IMG/VR virus record: IMGVR_UViG_2684622580_000009
Strand: one strand, 5' to 3'
DNA length: 10,930 bases
Source: a virus
Taxonomy: Duplodnaviria > Heunggongvirae > Uroviricota > Caudoviricetes
Both the position numbers and the translations under genes were made by a program. Positions 1-10,930 of the stretch are shown piece after piece (position 1 is the stretch's first letter; every line of letters begins with the position of its first letter). The notes below the pieces were generated by a model. That model ran no database searches, was not told the DNA's origin, and saw nothing but the letters and a program-made list of their open reading frames with translations.

Positions 1-316
1 TATAATAAACTTACTTTTTTATCATTTTTCCACTTTAACAACATTTTGCTCCACTTTTCCACGATCAAACAACTTGAAATCTGGTTAAAATAACACGCAA
101 CACTATTCTTCTTCCTTGAGTCCGCCCGGAACTCGAAAAACAAACCGAGTTAAAGCCATTTTTCACAAAATCGATTTTGGGTCTCACCAAAATTACGGGG
201 TTGCATACGCATTCGTTTATTTTCGAACGTGTACATACAAATATGCACAAAAATAATCAAAATTATTTTCTGAGATGCATTATGATATGAACACCAATTT
301 CGTATAGAGTCTCACT

Positions 317-907
317 ATGTCTCGAATTTTTGCTTACTGTCGGATATCAACGCTGGATCAGACCATCGAAAATCAACGCCGGGAAATCGAAAGTGCAGGT
401 TTTAAAATCAAACCTCAGCAAATAATCGAAGAACACATTAGCGGCTCAGCAGCAACCAGTGAGCGTCCTGGTTTTAACCGGTTGCTTGCTCGCCTGAAAT
501 GTGGTGATCAATTGATTGTGACAAAACTGGATCGCCTTGGTTGTAATGCAATGGATATCAGGAAAACAGTGGAACAACTGACCGAAACAGGTATCAGAGT
601 GCATTGCTTAGCATTGGGGGGCATTGACCTGACCAGTCCAACAGGAAAAATGATGATGCACGTAATTTCAGCAGTCGCTGAATTTGAACGAGACCTTTTA
701 CTTGAACGCACTCATTCCGGGATAGTAAGAGCCCGCGGCGCAGGGAAACGTTTTGGTCGACCACCTGTGTTAAATGAAGAACAGAAACAGGTGGTATTCG
801 AACGAATTAAGTCAGGTGTAAGTATAAGTGCCATTGCCCGGGAATTCAAAACCTCGCGGCAAACCATTTTAAGAGCCAAAGCAAAACTTCAGACACCTGA
901 CATATAA
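317..907 (+). CDS. pin: Serine recombinase (resolvase/invertase family), PinQ/PinR-like, 196 aa
   Basis: N-terminal catalytic motif YCRISTLDQ with active-site Ser, C-terminal HTH ([20 protein letters not shown]); length and sequence match my recollection of the 196-aa PinQ/PinR proteins of E. coli lambdoid prophages. GAG-rich sequence lies shortly upstream of the ATG at 317. Confidence 0.85.
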
Positions 908-1004
908 AAAATAATCTCGGTGTGAGATGCTTTACGTCTTCCAAGCCCCCTTCCTTGCCGTAAATGGAAAGATACATCTAATTATAGAATTTATATGTTT
1001 TACC

Positions 1005-1580
1005 CTACGGCAGTGCTGGCCATTCAATATCCTGTGCAGTTGACGTATCAACACGGTTCAGCAACACCCGATACTTTTTCCAGGCTTCCAGCAATGAGGT
1101 TTCTTCCTCCGTTGCGATTTCCAGATCTACAGCATCCTGAAGTGGCGCAATATGCTCACTGGCTACCTGCATCAGGCTGTTTTTTGTTTCTTCCGCCTCT
1201 CGGATCCGGAACAGTTTTTCTGCTTCTGCATCTTTCACCCAGGCTGTGCCGTTCCACTTCTGAAACTCCCCTTCCGGCGATAACCAGGTAACATTTTCCG
1301 GTAACGGACCGAGTTCAGAAATAAATAACGCGTCCCCTGACGCTACGTCATAAACCGTTTTACCCCGATGGTCTTCAACGAGATGCCACGATGCCTTATC
1401 ACTGTTGAAAACAGCCACAAAGCCAGCAGGAATATCTGGTGGTGCAATATCGGTACTGTTTGCTGGCAGACCTGTATGAGGCGGAATATATGCGTCACCT
1501 TCACCAATAAATTCATTAGTTCCGGCCAGCAGATTATAAATTTTTATGGTCCGTGGTTGTTCACTCATTCTGAATGCCAT
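1005..1580 (-). CDS. tfa: Tail fibre assembly protein (lambda Tfa-like), 191 aa
   Basis: Near-identical over its length to recalled lambda Tfa ([54 protein letters not shown]...); sits immediately downstream of the stf-derived ORF with a start/stop overlap at 1580. Confidence 0.9.
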
Positions 1581-2626
1581 TATGCAAGCCTCACAATATA
1601 GTTAAATGCGATGTTTTTGACGGTGTTTTCCGCGTTACCAGCAGCGTTAACGGTGATGGTGTGTCCATGTGAACCAATCGCAACGGAGTGCGTGTGTGCA
1701 CCAATACCGACAGTATGTGCGTGTGCACCTGCAGATGCTGCTGTGCCGGACAGTGAGTGGCTATGGTTACCATCTGTACTGGTATTAGCTAACGCCCCCG
1801 TAGACATACCTACTGAGCCTTGTACACCCCAGGTATTTTGACCTGAGCTTGTATAACCATATTGATAAGTATCTTTAAAAACACTGGGGTTAAATCGACG
1901 GCCATCTCTATGGCTGTGATTACCAGCTGCATTCGTGCTGCCACTTAAACTATGGGTATGCGCACCAGTGTTATTCGTGGATTTAGTGCCGTAATCAAAC
2001 GACGATGTGGTTTTCGTCCCCAAATCCGTACTGGATGCGCTGGCGCTGTGGGTATGCGATTTAATGCCGTCCTGTTCCTGAGACAATACGGCCCGACCAC
2101 TGGCAGGTTTGCCCTTAATCGTCCAGCCACGCATATCAGGGATCACGCCTGACGGATAAGCGGCTGCAAGTTTCGGGTATGCAGATTTGTCAAAAGTCTG
2201 CCCCTGCATCAGGGCATAGCCAGACGGAACGGTATCTGATGGCCACGGGATTGGTGCGCCAGGCGGATAAAACTGCTCTGATGGCGTATAGAGTGAATAA
2301 ACTGTACCGTCCGTTAACCCTTCCGGCTTATTAGCAGAATATGCTGGTGACGTATGAATCGTCACGTTGGCATTACTGGTATAACCGACACGGGCAGACT
2401 TCACCACATTCACCTCGCGGATGTAGTCGCTGCCCATCGCATTCATGATGGCCCGCTGAAAGGGCAGTGTTTCCCAGCGCCCTTCCTGGTATGCGGATTC
2501 TTTCGGGAGATAGTAATTAGCATCCGCCCATTCAACGGCGGTCTGTGGCTCCGGCCTGAACAGTGAGCGAAGCCCGGCGCGGACAAAATGCCGTAGCCTG
2601 TTAACCTGACTGTTCGATATATTCAC
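1580..2626 (-). CDS. Chimeric ORF: terminase large subunit A N-terminus (about 83 codons) fused in frame to the C-terminal region of side tail fibre Stf (about 265 codons)
   Basis: Residues 1-83 ([83 protein letters not shown]) match lambda gpA N-terminus; the remainder ([11 protein letters not shown]...GAHTHS...[29 protein letters not shown]) matches the lambda Stf C-terminus with its His-rich GxHxH repeats. Start overlaps the Nu1 3' end as in lambda. Junction near 2376-2379. Confidence 0.85.
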
Positions 2627-3146
2627 TCAGCAACCCCGGTATCAGTTCATCCAGCGCGGCTGCTTTGTTCATGGCTTTGATGATATCCCGTTTCAGGAAA
2701 TCAACATGTCGGTTTTCCAGTTCCGGAAAACGCCGCTGCACCGACAGGGGGATCCCGTCGAGAATACTGGCAATTTCACCTGCGATCCGCGACAGCACGA
2801 AAGTACAGAATGCGGTTTCCACCACTTCAGCGGAGTCTCTGGCATTTTTCAGCTCCTGTGCGTCGGCCTGCGCACGCGTAAGTCGATGGCGTTCGTACTC
2901 AATAGTCCCTGGCTGGAGATCTGTCTCGCTGGCCTGCCGCAGTTCTTCAACTTCCCGGCGCAGCTTTTCGTTCTCAATTTCAGCATCCCTTTCGGCATAC
3001 CATTTTATGACGGCGGCAGAATCATAAAGCACCTCATTACCCTTGCCACCGCCTCGCAGAACGGGCATTCCCTGCTCCTGCCAGTTCTGAATGGTACGGA
3101 TACTCGCACCGAAAATATCAGCCAGCTGCTTTTTGTTGACTTCCAT
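2601..3146 (-). CDS. nu1: Terminase small subunit Nu1 (lambda Nu1-like, NohD/NohQ-type), 181 aa
   Basis: Essentially identical to recalled lambda Nu1 ([71 protein letters not shown]...EYIEQSG); N-terminal winged HTH; correct spacing (about 190 bp) from cosN. Confidence 0.92.
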
Positions 3147-3480
3147 TGTTCATTCCACGGACAAAAACAGAGAAAGGAAACGACAGAGGCCAAAAAGCTC
3201 GCTTTCAGCACCTGTCGTTTCCTTTCTTTTCAGAGGGTATTTTAAATAAAAACATTAAGTTATGACGAAGAAGAACGGAAACGCCTTAAACCGGAAAATT
3301 TTCATAAATAGCGAAAACCCGCGAGGTCGCCGCCCCGTAACCTGTCGGATCGCCGGAAAGGACCCGCAAAATGATAATAATTATCATCTACATGTCACAA
3401 CGTGCATCTACGCCATCAAACCACGTCAAATAATCAATTATGACGCAGGTATCGTATTAATTGATCTGCATCAACTTAAC
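3147..3480. other. cos: Lambda-type cos site: cosB (3147-3323), cosN 12-nt cohesive-end sequence (3324-3335), cosQ side (3336 to about 3480)
   Basis: 3324-3335 AGGTCGCCGCCC is the reverse complement of the lambda left cohesive end GGGCGGCGACCT. Flanking DNA matches recalled lambda left-end sequence (to 3147) and lambda right-end sequence (CGTAACCTGTCGGATC...ATTATGACGCAGGTATCGTATTAATTGATCTGC, 3336 to about 3470) with a few substitutions. Confidence 0.85.
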
Positions 3481-3534
3481 GTAAAAAAAACTTCAGACAA
3501 TACAAATCAGCGACACTGAATACGGGGCAACCTC

Positions 3535-3729
3535 ATGTCAACGAAGAACAGAACCCGCAGAACAACAACCCGCAACATCCGCTTTCCTAACCAAATGATT
3601 GAACAAATTAACATCGCTCTTGAGCAAAAAGGGTCCGGGAATTTCTCAGCCTGGGTCATTGAAGCCTGCCGCCGGAGACTAACGTCAGAAAAGAGAGCAT
3701 ATACATCAATCCAAAGTGATGATGAATAA
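3535..3729 (+). CDS. ylcI: Small hypothetical protein, 64 aa, ribbon-helix-helix-like; tentatively YlcI/DUF3950-like
   Basis: Basic Arg/Thr-rich N-terminus followed by RNIRFPNQMIEQINIALEQKGSGNFSAWVIEACRRRL, which resembles an RHH (Arc/MetJ/CopG-type) fold. Length and position next to cos/Nu1 match what I recall for ylcI of DLP12. The symbol is tentative. Confidence 0.5.
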   Translation: MSTKNRTRRTTTRNIRFPNQMIEQINIALEQKGSGNFSAWVIEACRRRLTSEKRAYTSIQSDDE

Positions 3730-4088
3730 ACATCCCGGTTTCTTCCACCATCGCACCGGAAAAGCGACTATGAGGGTAACCCTGCGTCTGTCAGCACAGT
3801 AAAACCCGGTGTGCATCGTTTTTGATTATTCCCGCACACTCACGCAGAAGGAATTCCCCGTCGGGCTACGGTCATGGTTAATGCGGGAATACGGCGACGA
3901 TACAGCGCAGCTAAAAGGGTAATGGACAGAAAGAGCGGTTTATTTCATTCCACAGGATTCTGAGTGCCCCCCTCCTCCAATAGGCTGAGCATCCACCTAT
4001 ATAGTTTTAATTTTCATCAATCCATTTAACTATCGTTTAATTGTTGTCACATAGGATTCTGCCGTTTTTAACAATGCAGGATAATAAG

Positions 4089-4382
4089 ATGAAAAAAATG
4101 TTGTTTTCTGCCGCTCTGGCAATGCTTATTACAGGATGTGCTCAACAGACGTTTACTGTTGGAAACAAACCGACAGCAGTAACACCAAAGGAAACCATCA
4201 CCCATCACTTCTTCGTTTCGGGAATTGGACAGGAGAAAACTGTTGATGCAGCCAAAATTTGTGGCGGCGCAGAAAATGTTGTTAAAACAGAAACCCAGCA
4301 AACATTCGTAAATGGATTGCTCGGTTTTATTACTTTAGGCATTTATACTCCGCTGGAAGCGCGTGTGTATTGCTCACAATAA
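4089..4382 (+). CDS. bor: Bor lipoprotein (serum-resistance, lysogenic-conversion cargo), 97 aa
   Basis: MKKMLFSAALAMLITGCAQQ signal peptide with lipobox LITGC; matches recalled lambda Bor. RBS AGGATAA upstream of the ATG at 4089. The ORF-track start at 4041 is probably an upstream in-frame extension. Confidence 0.9.
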   Translation: MKKMLFSAALAMLITGCAQQTFTVGNKPTAVTPKETITHHFFVSGIGQEKTVDAAKICGGAENVVKTETQQTFVNGLLGFITLGIYTPLEARVYCSQ

Positions 4383-4413
4383 TTGCATGAGTTGCCCATC
4401 GATATGGGCAGCT

Positions 4414-4944
4414 CTATCTGCACTGCTCATTAATATACTTCTGGGTTCCTTCCAGTTGTTTTTGCATAGTGATCAGCCTCTCTCTGAGGGTGAAATAATC
4501 CCGTTCAGCGGTGTCTGCCAGTCGGGGGGAGGCTGCATTATCCACGCCGGAGGCGGTGGTGGCTTCACGCACTGACTGACAGACTGCTTTGATGTGCAAC
4601 CGACGACGACCAGCGGCAACATCATCACGCAGAGCATCATTTTCAGCTTTCGCATCAGCTAACTCCTTCGTGTATTTTGCATCGAGCGCAGCAACATCAC
4701 GCTGACGCATCTGCATGTCAGTAATTGCCGCGTTCGCCAGCTTCAGTTCTCTGGCATTTTTGTCGCGCTGGGCTTTGTAGGTAATGGCGTTATCACGGTA
4801 ATGATTAACAGCCCATGACAGGCCGACGATGATGCAGATAACCAGAGCGGAGATAATCGCGGTTATGCCCGTGACATACAGTCCATACACCAACAATATC
4901 TTTATATGGTATGTAGCTGACACCTTCCAGACCATCGTCACCAC
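4414..4944 (-). CDS. Rz: Rz-like i-spanin, 5' end replaced: lambda Rz homology runs from 4414 to about 4866; the ATG at 4944 is non-native
   Basis: From [14 protein letters not shown]... to ...KYINEQCR the product is near-identical to recalled lambda Rz from codon 5 onward. The first roughly 26 codons of this ORF are instead out-of-frame endolysin DNA. Native Rz start and RBS are absent. Confidence 0.8.
4473..4655 (-). CDS. Rz1: Rz1 o-spanin lipoprotein, 60 aa, embedded in the +1 frame of Rz
   Basis: [60 protein letters not shown]: lipobox VVGC and proline-rich segment, near-identical to recalled lambda Rz1. Confidence 0.85.
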
Positions 4945-5029
4945 TCGGACCAGTGATGAGCACAGACGCTATGGCAACAGCCCCACCACCAATAGCAGCT
5001 GCTACAGCCTTGCGTAATGATGGCGACAT
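4805..5029 (-). pseudogene. rrrD: Truncated SAR-endolysin (phage 21 R / RrrD-type lysozyme): only the first 55 codons are retained, followed by 19 out-of-frame codons
   Basis: [55 protein letters not shown] matches the SAR signal-anchor and start of the catalytic region of P21-type endolysins. The frame then runs into Rz DNA and stops at 74 aa, where a complete enzyme is about 165 aa. Start overlaps the holin stop (TAATG). Confidence 0.8.
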
Positions 5030-5244
5030 TATTCACCTCTCGCAGCCTTGCGCTTATCTTCTTTAATCTTGAAATAAAGGTTTGTCAGGTACGTCAGCAG
5101 GCCAAATACCAGGCTACCCAGCACTCCAATTGCCGCCCACTGTGAGGGCGTGACTTTATCTAGCAGCTGTAAAAACCAGTACCCGGCACTACCTGCTGAG
5201 GTGCCATAGGCGACACCCGTTGTTAACTTATCCATGGATTTCAT
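5029..5244 (-). CDS. essD: Class II holin / pinholin (phage 21 S-type, EssD-like), 71 aa, with dual-start motif
   Basis: [71 protein letters not shown]: two TMDs and a charged C-terminus; Met1-Lys2-Ser3-Met4 gives the antiholin/holin dual start typical of S21. Confidence 0.88.
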
Positions 5245-5357
5245 AACCCCACCTCGCAGACAAAGCGGGTGTAAATTGAGGGAATACTACGAAACGTAAC
5301 AGACTCGGAGTCAGTGAATAACTCAGGTATTGGGTTATCAGCTAATATCGAGACTCA

Positions 5358-5389
5358 AAAAATGGAAAAACCCGCTCGACGGCGGGTTT
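5358..5389 (-). terminator. Candidate rho-independent terminator on the minus strand, about 115 bp upstream of the holin start
   Basis: Minus-strand read: CCCGC-cgtcga-GCGGG stem-loop followed directly by TTTTTCCATTTTTT. The plus-strand read has only TTT after the stem. Confidence 0.55.
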
Positions 5390-5816
5390 AAGCTGTGTGA
5401 CGAAGTAACCACTCTTAACAGCATAACCAATTTTTTACGTACGTAAACCACTAAATGATATTTGCGAGAATGCTACCGAGTATTGAAAACACCACTACAA
5501 ATACATAAGCAAATCTCAACAAATAACCAACAAATTATTTCCAGTGTTATTTTTAGCTTATTTAAATTGAACCTTCAAATTATAGAGCGCTTATAAATAA
5601 CAGCCGTTAATATAAATTGGCTAATAGATTTATTTTTATTCAGCAAAGAGCTATGAATAGGATTCGATAGAAAAAAGTTCAGATAAAAATAGAGATCTAC
5701 TTCACAAATCAAACGAGAAACCAAAACTTACATCTTGAAATAATCACATTGATTAGATGAATATTTATCGCGCAGTGACATCATTTTTTAATAATAGTTC
5801 AAAAAAAGGGCTCACG

Positions 5817-6914
5817 ATGAAAAAATTAACAGTGGCAATTTCTGCTGTAGCTGCATCAGTACTGATGGCGATGTCTGCTCAGGCAGCTGAAATTTATAAT
5901 AAAGACAGTAACAAGCTGGATCTGTACGGGAAAGTTAATGCTAAGCACTACTTCTCCTCTAATGATGCAGATGATGGTGATACTACTTATGCCCGTCTTG
6001 GCTTCAAAGGTGAAACCCAAATCAACGATCAACTGACTGGTTTCGGTCAGTGGGAATATGAATTCAAAGGCAACCGCGCTGAATCTCAAGGTTCCTCCAA
6101 AGACAAAACCCGTCTTGCATTTGCAGGCCTGAAATTCGGTGACTACGGCTCAATCGATTACGGCCGTAACTACGGTGTAGCATACGACATCGGTGCGTGG
6201 ACTGACGTTCTGCCAGAATTCGGTGGCGATACCTGGACCCAAACAGATGTGTTCATGACTGGTCGCACCACTGGTGTTGCAACCTATCGTAACAACGACT
6301 TCTTTGGTCTGGTTGATGGTCTGAACTTTGCTGCTCAGTACCAAGGCAAAAACGATCGTAGCGATTTCGATAACTACACTGAAGGTAACGGTGATGGCTT
6401 CGGTTTCTCTGCTACCTATGAATACGAAGGATTCGGTATCGGTGCAACTTATGCGAAATCTGATCGTACCGACACTCAAGTTAATGCAGGGAAAGTTCTT
6501 CCTGAAGTATTTGCTTCCGGTAAAAATGCAGAAGTTTGGGCCGCAGGTCTGAAATATGACGCTAACAACATTTACCTGGCCACTACCTATTCTGAAACCC
6601 AGAATATGACTGTATTTGCTGATCACTTCGTTGCTAATAAAGCCCAAAACTTCGAAGCTGTTGCACAATATCAGTTCGATTTCGGTCTGCGTCCGTCCGT
6701 TGCTTACCTGCAATCTAAAGGTAAGGATCTTGGAGTATGGGGCGATCAGGACTTAGTCAAATATGTTGATGTAGGTGCAACCTATTACTTCAACAAAAAT
6801 ATGTCTACTTTCGTTGATTACAAAATCAACCTGCTTGACAAAAATGACTTCACTAAAGCACTCGGTGTAAGCACTGATGACATCGTTGCTGTAGGTCTGG
6901 TTTACCAGTTCTAA
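5817..6914 (+). CDS. nmpC: Outer-membrane general porin, NmpC/OmpD/Lc-type, intact, 365 aa precursor
   Basis: Signal peptide [23 protein letters not shown] then [17 protein letters not shown]..., C-terminal VGLVYQF beta-barrel terminal motif with terminal Phe; matches recalled NmpC. The ATG at 5817 is preferred to the upstream ATG at 5757 because it starts the signal peptide and has a purine-rich stretch upstream. It sits opposite to the late genes between Q and S, as in DLP12/PA-2. Confidence 0.9.
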
Positions 6915-6920
6915 TCTGAT

Positions 6921-6964
6921 TACGAAAAAGATATGTTGCGGGAGGCGTTGCCTCCCCAACATAT
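6921..6964 (-). terminator. Long imperfect palindrome (about 15-bp arms, one bulge) followed on the minus strand by CTTTTT; candidate tR'-like terminator of a short Q-proximal transcript
   Basis: ATATGTTGCGGGAGGC-GTT-GCCTCCCCAACATAT (6931-6964); the minus-strand read is followed by a T5 run (6925-6930). It lies about 180 nt downstream of the Q stop, similar in scale to the lambda pR'-tR' 6S unit. Confidence 0.45.
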
Positions 6965-7103
6965 AAGTGGCTCCCTCAAGCCACTTCCTTTAGAAGCACA
7001 ACCTTGCTTCTAACTATATAAACCTTCTGTTATATATTACCCTTTATTTTTGGGGGCGTCTCAACGCCCCATTTTTAATAATTTTTAGTAAACAATTGGC
7101 ATA
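6965..7103 (-). promoter_or_regulatory. Candidate late promoter (pR'-like) and Q-utilisation region immediately downstream of the Q gene
   Basis: Position only: in lambdoid phages pR' and qut lie directly downstream of Q. The segment is AT-rich and holds three further hairpins (6965-6986, 6992-7010, 7053-7070). No -10/-35 pair could be assigned confidently by eye. Confidence 0.3.
7053..7086 (+). terminator. Rho-independent terminator on the plus strand downstream of the porin gene
   Basis: GGGGCGT-ctca-ACGCCCC stem-loop (7053-7070) followed by ATTTTTAATAATTTTT. Confidence 0.6.
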
Positions 7104-7487
7104 TTAATTAGAGTTATTAACAACGATATCCATCTCTAACCGGATATCTAATGCCATTAACATCCCTTCAATTATGCCCTCAGCCTTCTGTAACCTTTTC
7201 CCGATATAACCATCAGAGCAGCAATGCTTACCTGCCAGTGACATGAATGTCATACCGACTACATAATAATCTACTAATAAATCGTGCAAATCGCTGTTGT
7301 TCTTTTTCAGACGGGCCATGCACCCGCAAATGATCATCGCGTCATCGTCACAACATTGCGGGCGAGATTTTACTTTTGAAGGAATTAATCCCTTAAAACC
7401 GGCGGCAATGGACGACCAGGTCACATCTTCATGATTATTAGCCGCCCACGCTCCCCAACGTTCAAGAACCATCTGAATATCACGCAT
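7104..7487 (-). CDS. quuD: Late-gene antiterminator Q (phage 82 / QuuD-type), 127 aa
   Basis: [60 protein letters not shown]... matches recalled QuuD/Q82, including the Cys-rich zinc-binding region. The ORF-track start at 7502 adds 5 upstream codons; the ATG at 7487 is preferred. Confidence 0.88.
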
Positions 7488-7654
7488 TAACTTTCTCCAC
7501 AAAATCAGGCCAGCACACCAATCGCCAGTGCGCGATCGATAAAACGAAATATCAGCTCCAGCTGGGAGCCATACTTCTCTTCAAATGCCACGGTACCCGT
7601 TATTCTAAAGATCTTGCAGATGAAGGCACCCGCTGCTTTATCGATGCCGATAAT

Positions 7655-8218
7655 ATGCGTGCCGTCAGTGTGCTTAACCTGGGTACTATTGATGAGCCAG
7701 GTCACGCAGATAACACTGCCACTCTCAAACTGAAAAAGACAGCACCGTTCTCTGCTCTGTTGTCTGTTAACGGCGAGCGTAACTCCCAGAAGTCACTGGC
7801 AGAATGGATCGAAGACTGGGCCGACTACCTTGTGGGCTTTGATGCTAATGGTGACGCCATTCAGGCAACAAAAGCGGCTGCGGCAGTCCGTAAAATCACG
7901 ATTGAAGCAAACCAGACCGCTGATTTTGAAGATAATGACTTCAGCGGCAAACGCTCCCTGATGGAGTCTGTCGAAGCGAAGACCAAAGACATTATGCCAG
8001 TGGCATTTGAATTTAAATGCGTTCCGTTTGAAGGTCTGAAAGAACGTCCGTTTAAATTACGCCTCAGCATTATCACTGGCGATCGTCCTGTACTGGTTCT
8101 GCGCATTATTCAGCTGGAAGCGGTGCAGGAAGAAATGGCTAACGAATTTCGTGATCTGCTTGTTGAGAAATTCAAAGACAGCAAAGTAGAAACCTTTATT
8201 GGTACTTTCACCGCCTGA
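7655..8218 (+). CDS. yfdQ: YfdQ-like (DUF2303) protein; possibly a 5'-truncated remnant
   Basis: Assigned mainly by synteny, directly upstream of an unmistakable yfdR-yfdS-yfdT run. The reading frame stays open about 58 codons upstream of the ATG at 7655 with no in-frame start, extending to within a few bp of the quuD start, which suggests a truncated longer gene. Confidence 0.5.
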
Positions 8219-8345
8219 TTTCATTACTGCAAATGCCCCTGCGGGGGCATTTATGGAAACGTAATTAACTCAATAATCGCCGGATGGTGAGGGCTTCCTT
8301 TTACCAGAATTCAGCGCGGTGCAGTGCATATACGTGGAGAACAAA

Positions 8346-8882
8346 ATGTCATTTATTAAAACTTTTTCCGGGAAGCATTTTTATTATGACAAGATAAATA
8401 AAGACGACATCGATATTAACGATATCGCGGTTTCCCTTTCAAATATCTGTCGCTTTGCCGGTCATCTTTCGCACTTCTACAGCGTCGCCCAACATGCGGT
8501 TCTTTGCAGCCAGCTGGTGCCGCAGGAATTTGCTTTTGAAGCGTTAATGCATGATGCAACAGAAGCGTATTGCCAGGACATTCCCGCACCACTGAAACGC
8601 CTTCTTCCTGACTATAAACGGATGGAAGAAAAAATAGACGCCGTAATCCGTGAGAAATACGGGTTACCCCCAGTTATGAGTACACCCGTGAAATATGCCG
8701 ATCTCATCATGCTGGCAACCGAACGCCGCGATCTCGGGCTTGATGATGGCTCTTTCTGGCCTGTACTGGAAGGCATCCCGGCAACAGAGATGTTCAACGT
8801 GATTCCACTGGCACCGGGTCATGCCTACGGGATGTTTATGGAACGTTTTAACGATTTATCGGAGTTACGCAAATGCGCATGA
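8346..8882 (+). CDS. yfdR: HD-domain 5'-deoxynucleotidase YfdR-like, 178 aa
   Basis: MSFIKTFSGKHFYYDKINKDD...CRFAGHLSHFYSVAQHAVLCS...LMHDATEAYCQDIP carries the HD-superfamily H...HD metal-binding motifs and matches recalled E. coli YfdR. RBS GGAGA 5 nt upstream of the ATG at 8346. Confidence 0.85.
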   Translation: MSFIKTFSGKHFYYDKINKDDIDINDIAVSLSNICRFAGHLSHFYSVAQHAVLCSQLVPQEFAFEALMHDATEAYCQDIPAPLKRLLPDYKRMEEKIDAVIREKYGLPPVMSTPVKYADLIMLATERRDLGLDDGSFWPVLEGIPATEMFNVIPLAPGHAYGMFMERFNDLSELRKCA

Positions 8883-9235
8883 ATGTTTTCGAAATGGAAG
8901 GGTTTCTTCGCGGGAAATGTGTACCGCGAGATCTGAAAGTGAACGAAACAAATGCTGAGTACCTGGTACGTAAATTCGACGCGCTTGAAGCTAAATGTGC
9001 GGCACTGGAAAACAAAATAATACCAGTGTCAGCTGAACTGCCACCAGCAAATGAAAGTGTTCTGTTATTTGATGCTAATGGAGAAGGCTGGCTGATTGGC
9101 TGGCGTTCTCTCTGGTACACCTGGGGACAAAAAGAAACCGGAGAATGGCAGTGGACATTTCAGGTCGGGGACCTTGAAAACGTCAATATCACTCACTGGG
9201 CAGTAATGCCAAAAGCACCGGAGGCTGGAGCATAA
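8873..9235 (+). CDS. yfdS: YfdS-like prophage protein of unknown function, 120 aa
   Basis: Matches recalled YfdS of CPS-53/KplE1. Start overlaps the yfdR stop (alternative ATG at 8879 forms an ATGA overlap), indicating translational coupling. Confidence 0.7.
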   Translation: MRMNVFEMEGFLRGKCVPRDLKVNETNAEYLVRKFDALEAKCAALENKIIPVSAELPPANESVLLFDANGEGWLIGWRSLWYTWGQKETGEWQWTFQVGDLENVNITHWAVMPKAPEAGA

Positions 9236-9540
9236 TGACCACATTTACCAATAAAGAACTGATTAAAGAAATCAAAGAACGAATCAGCAGCCTAGAGGTT
9301 CGAGACGATATTGAGCGCCGTGCTTATGAAATCGCACTCGTATCTCTGGAAGTAGAGCCAGTTGAACGCGAAGCCTATGAATTATTCATGGAAAAGCGTT
9401 TCGGTGACTTAGTAGATCGTCGGAGAGCAAAAAACGGCGATAACGAATACATGGCATGGGATATGACTCTCGGTTGGATCGTCTGGCAGCAACGAGCTGG
9501 TATCCATTTTTCAACAATGACACAGCAAGAGGTGAAATAA
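9235..9540 (+). CDS. yfdT: YfdT-like prophage protein of unknown function, 101 aa
   Basis: Matches recalled YfdT; TAATG stop/start overlaps at both ends (with yfdS at 9235 and with the next gene at 9540). Confidence 0.7.
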   Translation: MTTFTNKELIKEIKERISSLEVRDDIERRAYEIALVSLEVEPVEREAYELFMEKRFGDLVDRRRAKNGDNEYMAWDMTLGWIVWQQRAGIHFSTMTQQEVK

Positions 9541-9911
9541 TGGAGCCATACAGCCTCACACTCGATGAGGCCTGTCAGTTTCTTAAGATATCCAGACCAA
9601 CCGCCACCAACTGGATACGAACAGGCCGCCTACAGGCAACACGTAAAGATCCAACCAAGCCAAAATCTCCTTACCTCACAACACGGCAAGCTTGCATTGC
9701 GGCGCTTCAGTCTCCGCTGCATACTGTCCAGGTGAGCGCGGGTGATGGCATAACAGAGGAAAGAAAATGTCACTCTTCCGCAGAAATGAAATATGGTATG
9801 CCTCGTATTCGCTCCCGGGCGGGAAACGAATTAAGGAATCTCTTGGCACAAAGGACAAGCGGCAAGCTCAGGAGTTGCACGACAAGCGAAAAGCAGAACT
9901 CTGGCGAGTAG
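9540..9911 (+). CDS. Excisionase / AlpA-like HTH DNA-binding protein (putative Xis); 3' end uncertain, the open frame runs 145 nt into int
   Basis: N-terminal about 60 aa ([30 protein letters not shown]) has the excisionase/MerR-type HTH signature. RBS GAGGTG upstream of the ATG at 9540. Sits immediately 5' of the integrase. The C-terminal about 45 codons overlap int in another frame and are low-complexity, so the true stop may have been lost. Confidence 0.55.
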
Positions 9912-10930
9912 AAAAGCTAGGGGATTTACCTGATGTCACTTTTGAAGAGGCCTGCCTAAGATGGCTTGAGGAAAAAGCTGATAAAAAATCTCTCGATTCA
10001 GATAAAAGCCGGATTGAGTTCTGGCTTGAACATTTTGAGGGTATAAGGCTTAAAGATATCTCGGAGGCAAAGATTTACTCTGCTGTAAGCAGAATGCATA
10101 ACAGAAAGACGAAAGAAATATGGAAACAGAAAGTTCAGGCCGCCATCAGGAAAGGTAAAGAACCGCCTGTTTATGAACCAAAGCCAGTATCAACTCAGAC
10201 AAAGGCAAAGCATCTTGCCATGATAAAGGCCATTCTCCGTGCTGCAGAACGCGACTGGAAGTGGCTGGAAAAAGCGCCTGTCATCAAGATACCAGCGGTC
10301 AGAAACAAGCGAGTCAGATGGCTGGAAAAGGAGGAAGCAAAACGCCTTATTGATGAGTGCCCCGAACCACTGAAATCTGTCGTCAAGTTTGCGCTGGCAA
10401 CTGGTCTGAGAAAGTCGAACATCATAAATCTGGAATGGCAACAAATCGACATGCAGCGACGAGTTGCCTGGGTGAATCCAGAAGAGAGCAAATCAAACCG
10501 CGCCATTGGTGTGGCGCTGAACGATACCGCCTGTAAAGTGTTGCGTGATCAAATAGGCAAGCATCACAAATGGGTGTTTGTACATACCAAGGCGGCTAAG
10601 CGAGCAGATGGAACATCAACGCCTGCGGTCAGGAAGATGCGCATCGACAGCAAGACATCATGGCTATCAGCTTGTCGTCGTGCAGGAATTGAAGATTTCC
10701 GTTTCCATGACCTCAGACACACCTGGGCAAGCTGGCTGATCCAGTCAGGCGTCCCATTATCTGTGCTTCAGGAAATGGGCGGATGGGAGTCCATAGAAAT
10801 GGTTCGTAGGTATGCTCACCTTGCGCCTAATCATTTGACAGAGCATGCAAGGAAAATAGACGACATTTTTGGTGATAATGTCCCAAATATGTCCCACTGT
10901 GGAATTATGGAGGATATAAAGAAGGCGTAA
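9767..10930 (+). CDS. intD: Tyrosine site-specific integrase (lambda Int family, IntD-like), 387 aa
   Basis: Closely resembles recalled DLP12 IntD throughout. The C-terminal catalytic region carries R...HDLRHTWAS...[15 protein letters not shown] with the Tyr nucleophile in RRYAH. RBS GAGGAAAG upstream. Stop codon is the last triplet of the window. Confidence 0.93.

Follow-up and report, generated by a model that had tools for sequence, protein, structure and literature searches.

The interval between the antiterminator gene quuD and the divergent yfdQ-like gene (positions 7488-7700) is interpreted as the scar of one 7,569-bp illegitimate-recombination deletion in a prophage of the SfIV/SfII/mEp460 type, by which the units on both sides were orphaned, and the probability of this reading is put at about 0.9. 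The window, that is, the whole 10,930-nucleotide stretch of DNA that was analysed, was originally predicted to lack the entire immunity and replication block between Q and the integrase side, and this absence is borne out by comparison with the E14 and GPEC617 prophages. The size of the deletion, its end points and the microhomology at the junction can be given to the exact base, since a near-identical pre-deletion state survives in E14.

A DLP12-type remnant at the argU locus

The quuD gene (7104-7487, minus strand; ORF list, Pfam PF06530 and RefSeq WP_001204780.1) matches the PF06530 (Phage_antitermQ) profile over positions 1-118 of 118 (E 8.5e-54, 181 bits against a cut-off of 26), and its protein WP_001204780.1 (RefSeq) is identical in the window and the intact relatives. 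The sequence and the ORF list place the first in-frame ATG of the yfdQ-like (DUF2303) frame at 7655 on the plus strand, 168 bp from the quuD start at 7487, in agreement with the divergent spacing of about 170 bp claimed originally. The same strand continues with yfdR (8346-8882), a yfdS-like DUF551 gene (8873-9235) and yfdT (9235-9540), all assigned from the RefSeq annotation of an identical sequence and from Pfam, then with a xis-like HTH ORF (9540-9911; ORF list and Pfam) and intD (9767-10930; RefSeq annotation), the integrase gene reaching the window end. The surviving quuD, yfdR, yfdS, yfdT and intD frames are all intact, which fits either a very recent deletion or ongoing selection. The xis-like ORF has 123 codons and overlaps the intD start, its HTH_17 match covers only the first ~36 residues, and PGAP annotates just 9540-9605 as a partial HTH gene, as it does in relatives labelled intact; SfIV carries an annotated 147-aa excisionase in a layout similar to that of this putative gene.

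The RefSeq context of an identical sequence in KSC9 has ompT/envY on one side and the argU tRNA-Arg and fimZ on the other, the tRNA-Arg lying 16 bp after intD with fimZ beyond. The window represents a cryptic prophage of DLP12 type in the argU locus of E. coli, with the argU site, the adjacent intD and the flanks from fimZ/sfm to ompT/envY found in KSC9 as in K-12, where DLP12 likewise lies between argU/fimZ and ompT/envY. The DLP12 late region (quuD, nmpC-like porin, essD, rrrD, rzpD, bor, nohD) is present, and blastn aligned 2370-3746 and 4035-7522 collinearly with K-12 DLP12 at 93.8-98.7 % identity, with 99.4 % for intD, 97-99 % for quuD, the porin and essD, and 98.7 % for the quuD DNA. Both elements share this late-region order, and cI, cro and replication genes are missing from each. 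They differ between int and quuD, where K-12 DLP12 carries xisD'-exoD'-peaD'-renD::IS3-emrE-ybcK-ybcL-ybcM-ylcH-ybcN-ninE-ybcO-rusA-ylcG and the window carries yfdT-yfdS-yfdR-yfdQ' and a DUF968 tail; homology to K-12 DLP12 stops at 7522 and resumes at 9672, and the K-12 early region (exoD', renD, emrE, ybcK-ybcM, ninE, rusA, ylcG) is absent. On this comparison, the window represents another allele of the element that occupies the argU locus in K-12.

When 6950-8400 was compared by megablast with 5,426 complete E. coli genomes, the whole query was recovered in 20 of them at 99.4-100 % identity, and at least 18 of these 20 carriers hold the full 10.9-kb window at 99.8-99.9 % identity. The isolates came from pigs, chickens, a cat, humans and water, and from the identical junction alone we infer that they share a single deletion origin. 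Many carriers align to the window as two pieces over 12,660 bp, against 10,930 bp, and enclose a SAM-dependent methyltransferase gene, which suggests that the end near 1-1600 exists in an alternative arrangement, through inversion or insertion. A Pin/Hin-like serine recombinase gene (317-907, plus strand) lies there beside tail-fibre assembly genes. The single Rfam match of the whole window, IS009 at 1039-1237 on the minus strand (226.7 bits, gathering score 117), falls inside the tail-fibre assembly gene at 1005-1580 and is unrelated to the junction.

Other decay is visible in the late region. An ORF at 1580-2626 (minus strand) joins ~85 codons of the terminase large subunit to the C-terminal region of a tail fibre and resembles aaaD'/tfaD of K-12 DLP12; GPEC617 homology stops within it, at 2370, and a large deletion took all head and tail genes. 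The E14 match spans 1-7599 with the same "phage tail protein" annotation, and this deletion appears to be common to E14 and is probably older than the immunity deletion. Comparison with E14 and GPEC617 also revealed a 338-bp deletion at 4864-4865 that fuses the 5' part of rrrD to rzpD (genes 4414-5029, minus strand); PGAP describes the rrrD lysozyme as "missing C-terminus", whereas rrrD is intact in E14 and in K-12 DLP12, and the lysis cassette downstream of quuD is defective because of this deletion. An OmpC/NmpC-like porin gene (5817-6914, plus), whose strand is opposite to that of its neighbours quuD and essD, is intact in the window but IS5-disrupted in K-12 DLP12, and a bor-family lipoprotein gene (4089-4382, plus strand), named iss (increased serum survival) in the carrier annotation, is a retained moron.

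The deletion junction and the genes lost with it

Base-by-base comparison of the window with both arms of E14 (L007) and GPEC617 (L002), the comparison with complete relatives that had been proposed for mapping the deletion, placed the junction at 7594-7599. The left-arm match to these genomes runs to 7595 and the right-arm match begins at 7594, and the exact microhomology is 2 bp, TA (7594-7595). An imperfect 6-mer also lies at the junction, TACCCG against TATCCG in the left parent, or TA(T/C)CCG with one mismatch. With a slash at the break, the parental sequences are ...CACGGTA/TCCGCATG on the left and ...GATTTTA/CCCGTTATT on the right, and the window reads CACGGTACCCGTTATT. The E14 prophage, which is also at argU, has 7,569 bp more between the arms than the window and is 99.93 % identical to it over 4864-7599 and 99.94 % over 7594-10930; 6900-7595 is free of mismatches, 7600-10930 has two, and the comparison with GPEC617 yields the same deletion. 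Such near-zero divergence from E14 shows, as far as the identity of the arms can date it, that the event was recent. The deletion itself had been anticipated, although its Q-side limit had been placed at Q and proved to fall within a DUF968 gene, 108 bp before quuD begins.

The junction consists of left-parent and right-parent bases only, with no inserted sequence, and comparison with the parent arms found no filler bases, no IS copy or end, no target-site duplication and no recombinase site there. Deletion mediated by an IS was ruled out because no IS sequence is present at the junction. Given the shared TA or TA(T/C)CCG and the lack of filler or IS, the pattern of bases fits microhomology-associated illegitimate recombination.

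Each gene that meets the junction is a fragment. The minus strand carries the 3' remnant of a DUF968/HNH-like gene (7505-7595; 7505-7600 in PGAP), comprising the last ~30 codons with the stop at 7505-7507, and the interval between quuD and yfdQ is not empty, being occupied on that strand by this tail. Its last 29 amino acids match residues 301-329 of the 329-aa GPEC617 protein at 100 % identity and cover Pfam profile positions 146-171 of 171; the gene is the predecessor of quuD in intact relatives, and PGAP lists the remnant as "incomplete, missing N-terminus". The plus strand carries codons 68-274 and the stop of yfdQ (7595-8218; BLASTP, Pfam and PGAP), identical at 207 of 207 residues to residues 68-274 of the 274-aa YfdQ and matching only positions 65-269 of 269 of the DUF2303 (PF10065) profile. 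The N-terminal 67 codons, the native ribosome-binding site and the promoter are missing, and PGAP again annotates the DUF2303 gene at 7595-8218 as "incomplete, missing N-terminus". An intact YfdQ/DUF2303 gene (PF10065, ~269 positions, ~274 aa, with its own start) is thus not present. The suspicion that the deletion end point cut into yfdQ was correct, with residues 68-274 of 274 remaining at 100 % identity, and full-length YfdQ is 274 aa in K-12 CPS-53, GPEC617, E14 and phage SfIV, not ~187 aa.

The ATG at 7655-7657 (plus strand) is indeed the first of the yfdQ frame, but it is the internal Met88 of YfdQ (numbered from the BLASTP alignment), and the yfdQ-derived sequence starts at 7595, at codon 68; no Shine-Dalgarno-like sequence was seen before this ATG (GATGCCGATAAT-ATG). 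Translation confirms that the frame is open upstream of 7655 as far as a stop at 7439-7441 inside quuD, which had been taken as a sign of truncation. This openness is coincidental. The 51 codons at 7442-7594 (plus strand) are antisense to the DUF968 tail and the 5' end of quuD, and by our own arithmetic 51 random codons would lack a stop with a chance of ~9 %, an unremarkable outcome. BLASTP of the extended frame found no YfdQ similarity before query residue 52, and the segment was rejected as a source of the missing YfdQ residues since similarity begins only at the junction. A chimeric 66-codon ORF at 7505-7705 (minus strand), with a GTG start in the yfdQ antisense and reading in frame into the DUF968 tail, is probably not meaningful; it was rejected as a real small gene because residues 38-66 alone are DUF968 and the rest is yfdQ antisense. 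For annotation, the ATG at 7655 is not the start of a 187-aa protein, and 7505-7705 on the minus strand is a junction chimera. Both gene fragments are already flagged as partial pseudogenes in RefSeq/PGAP; the allele is new and precisely mapped, and the decay is ordinary.

The content of the lost block can be read directly from GPEC617, where the Q strand carries quuD, DUF968 (990 bp), KilA-N, RusA, a LexA-family gene, PerC, an HTH replication gene, DUF4222, ymfL and cro, and the other strand carries a LexA-like cI, two hypothetical genes (one oppositely oriented), yfdP, yfdQ (825 bp, 274 aa), yfdR, yfdS, yfdT, a xis fragment and intD. The deletion took codons 1 to ~300 of DUF968, the KilA-N, RusA, PerC and replication genes, ymfL, cro, the cI-like repressor gene, yfdP and codons 1-67 of yfdQ. 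A 7.8-kb stretch of GPEC617 matches vB_EcoS-569R4, vB_EcoM-689R6, PhiR29, PhiR49, mEp460, SfIV and SfII at 95-98 % identity, and SfIV, SfII, mEp460 and PhiR29 are viable temperate lambdoid phages that carry the deleted block at this identity. The annotated order in SfIV is Q, HNH/DUF968 ... primosomal/replication ... cro-like and, across the divergence, UmuD-like repressor ..., DUF2303 (825 bp), yfdR-like, two small genes, excisionase and integrase. Phages of the SfIV/mEp460 type have a KilA-N-like gene after DUF968/HNH, a ymfL-like gene before cro and a UmuD/LexA-like cI. Block loss was predicted correctly, but the genes had been named after lambda as N, O, P and nin; their SfIV/mEp460-type equivalents were lost instead (LexA-like cI, cro, YmfL, an O-like replication protein, PerC, RusA, KilA-N, DUF968 and YfdP). 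Whereas SfIV, SfII, mEp460 and PhiR29 are complete and functional, the window has no immunity, replication, head or tail genes. Measured against a functional lambdoid prophage and compared with E14 and GPEC617, it lacks the immunity module (cI-like gene, cro, operators and promoters), its replication gene is deleted, and no capsid, portal or tail genes remain.

According to these comparisons, one deletion joined codon 68 of yfdQ to the 3' end of DUF968, the gene next to quuD on its upstream side. The same step removed the cI-like repressor, cro, the intergenic region of the predicted rightward early promoter and operators and the predicted leftward early promoter region, together with ymfL, the replication gene, PerC, RusA, KilA-N, most of DUF968, yfdP and the N-terminus of yfdQ. 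The surviving units, quuD with the late region and yfdQ'-yfdR-yfdS-yfdT-xis-int, now diverge without native promoters and would be at most weakly expressed, through fortuitous ones, leaving a remnant beyond repression, induction and replication and probably beyond excision too.

Expression of the flanking units and alternative readings

In intact relatives, the rightward early operon starts with cro and ends with quuD, and the leftward early operon includes yfdQ-int. A consensus scan of the intact GPEC617 block gave a single 9/12 sigma-70 match in the cro-cI intergenic region, directed toward cro (L002 17490-17462, minus strand, TTGACC-17-TAGCAT), and a plus-strand match just past cI (L002 18213-18241); both are pattern matches, hence candidate promoters, and both lie within the deleted segment. 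Promoter prediction, which had been suggested for the interval, found none on either strand of 7488-7700 in a standard scan of 6900-8400, which gave two matches elsewhere compared with 2.7±1.9 in shuffled sequences. A looser 8/12 scan with wider flanks gave seven matches per strand compared with 4.7±2.5 and 6.7±3.2 in shuffles, and these were not accepted as promoters because their frequency is that expected of shuffled sequence. Among the weak matches were 7629-7602 (minus strand, GTGCCT-16-TAGAAT), 8017-7991 (minus strand, extended -10), 7238-7267 (plus strand, 10/12, antisense within quuD) and 7580-7606 (plus strand, spanning the junction); the two beside the junction, 7629-7602 and 7580-7606, score 8/12 with poor spacing. 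The ribosome-binding site of quuD is kept (GGAG ~9 nt before the ATG), two terminator-like hairpins lie upstream of quuD on the minus strand (7571-7553 and 7528-7510), and an Rfam scan of the whole window found no RNA family at 7488-7700. Transcription entering from outside would be antisense to both units, as they point outward from the scar. With the candidate early promoters in the lost block and only chance-level matches in the interval, both quuD and yfdQ'RST-xis-int have most likely been left orphaned and silent. What drives the two units, a question raised when the arrangement was first described, is thus answered provisionally, in that there is most likely no dedicated driver.

Two reports on K-12 bear on the activity of the surviving genes. 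The lysis cassette of K-12 DLP12, an element likewise without an immunity region, is expressed, reportedly in dependence on a Q-type antiterminator, RpoE and Hha (PMC7918800, citing Microbiology 2013;159:691 and 2015;161:1683), and by this analogy some low-level expression of quuD from non-canonical promoters is possible. Extra copies of CPS-53 yfdQ-yfdR-yfdS-yfdT are reported to inhibit replication initiation in K-12, and yfdQ to be needed for that phenotype (PMC4776307); if the YfdQRST phenotype applies here, it has probably been lost, as the first 67 yfdQ codons, the start codon and the promoter are gone.

The same observations bear on the possibility that the deletion made or exposed a working divergent promoter and that quuD and/or yfdQ'RST-int have become constitutive or stress-regulated host genes by domestication. 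The weak matches next to the junction (7629-7602 minus and 7580-7606 plus) and the good ribosome-binding site of quuD would allow this, the Q-dependent lysis-cassette expression of K-12 DLP12 is associated with reported phenotypes (PMC7918800), and ~20 genomes, from animal, human and water isolates, carry the allele. We nevertheless regard domestication as very improbable, since promoter matches occur at the frequency of shuffled sequence, the rrrD-rzpD deletion has disrupted the downstream lysis cassette, the yfdQ gene required for the reported YfdQRST phenotype (PMC4776307) is truncated here, and an event so recent, with near-zero divergence from E14, could persist without selection. The bolder proposal, that the fusion is a new regulatory unit in which a fortuitous junction promoter drives quuD and/or a Met88-truncated YfdQ with YfdR, S and T in the absence of a repressor, is very improbable; if true, it would provide a Q-dependent envelope/biofilm or a DnaA-modulating host phenotype and would account for the presence of the allele in ~20 genomes of varied hosts.

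Viewed with K-12 as sole reference, the window looks like a chimera, its right arm being 98 % identical to K-12 CPS-53 yfdQRST and its left arm 97-99 % identical to K-12 DLP12 quuD-nmpC-essD, as if two resident prophages had recombined to join a DLP12-like late region to a CPS-53-like early-left operon. Such an exchange is hard to credit, because E14 and GPEC617 hold both arms and the intervening genes in one argU prophage and, with arms 99.93-99.94 % identical to those of E14, one deletion within a single prophage is enough to account for the junction. The mosaic relation to K-12 is, by the same comparison, older than the deletion. There is next to no chance that Q and yfdQ stood head to head from the outset, in a compact, non-lambdoid element from which an immunity and replication block was always absent, and nothing was found in favour of this. 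Both junction genes are fragments of longer genes, and the full block is present in the 99.93 %-identical E14 prophage at argU and in viable SfIV and other phages; given the 7,569 bp extra in E14 and the occurrence of the block in viable phages, the head-to-head layout is, on these alignments, derived and not ancestral. An assembly or scaffolding artefact joining two prophage fragments can be dismissed almost with certainty, as the identical junction recurs in 20 independently assembled complete genomes, at least 18 of which contain the whole window.

Recurrence and survivorship of immunity deletions

By the ranking of the junction search, only 22 of the 5,426 genomes (20 + 1 + 1) have Q and yfdQ sequences separated by no more than ~1.2 kb, and at least three further independent losses of the block were observed, with other end points and short arm overlaps. 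E300010 has lost ~8.08 kb at argU, where a truncated Q is fused, with a 3-bp arm overlap, to a yfdQ that is cut further in. ARS-C301 has lost ~7.28 kb at the icd (e14) site with a 5-bp overlap, leaving an intact Q and an intact yfdQ ~190 bp apart. The third is the yfdO-yfdP junction of K-12 CPS-53 (L008 7586-7587), where 3,285 bp are lost relative to GPEC617, with a 2-bp overlap. The argU element of E300010 carries two independent deletions (L003 6446-7118 and 7116-7118), one being the truncated Q-yfdQ fusion and the second having removed the 3' end of yfdR through yfdT (window 8581 to 9455). The immunity region of K-12 DLP12 is likewise missing.

The CPS-53 (KplE1) prophage, which reads yfdO and then yfdP-yfdQ-yfdR-yfdS-yfdT-torI, shares the early-left cluster with the window at 98.05 % DNA identity over 7594-9593, and its scar is also head-to-head, with the 5' end of the replication gene, ymfL, cro and cI missing between yfdO and yfdP. 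It differs from the window in being at argW rather than argU and in having a smaller deletion, by which yfdP and the full 274-aa yfdQ were kept; on the Q side a fragment of a replication gene takes the place of DUF968/quuD, and int is at the opposite end of the prophage. With prophage decay in general, the window shares stepwise deletions and the retention of the integrase, tail-fibre fragments and morons (porin, bor/iss). Cryptic prophages are enriched in integrase and tail-fibre genes (PMC7744054), and the degeneration of DLP12 and other K-12 prophages has been described (PMC6379469). The window does not differ in kind from these cases and is a further example, resolved to the base pair.

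The deletion may have been tolerated because the repressor was lost along with both promoters under its control, and the tolerance of this joint loss is proposed as the reason why the same type of deletion recurs independently. We infer a survivorship effect, in which loss of the repressor would be tolerated only when its promoters or the downstream lytic functions are lost as well, so that the scars that are observed span the whole immunity core. This view agrees with published accounts of prophage degeneration (PMC6379469, PMC7744054), and the four deletions, in the window, E300010, ARS-C301 and CPS-53, fit selection against derepressed lytic genes.
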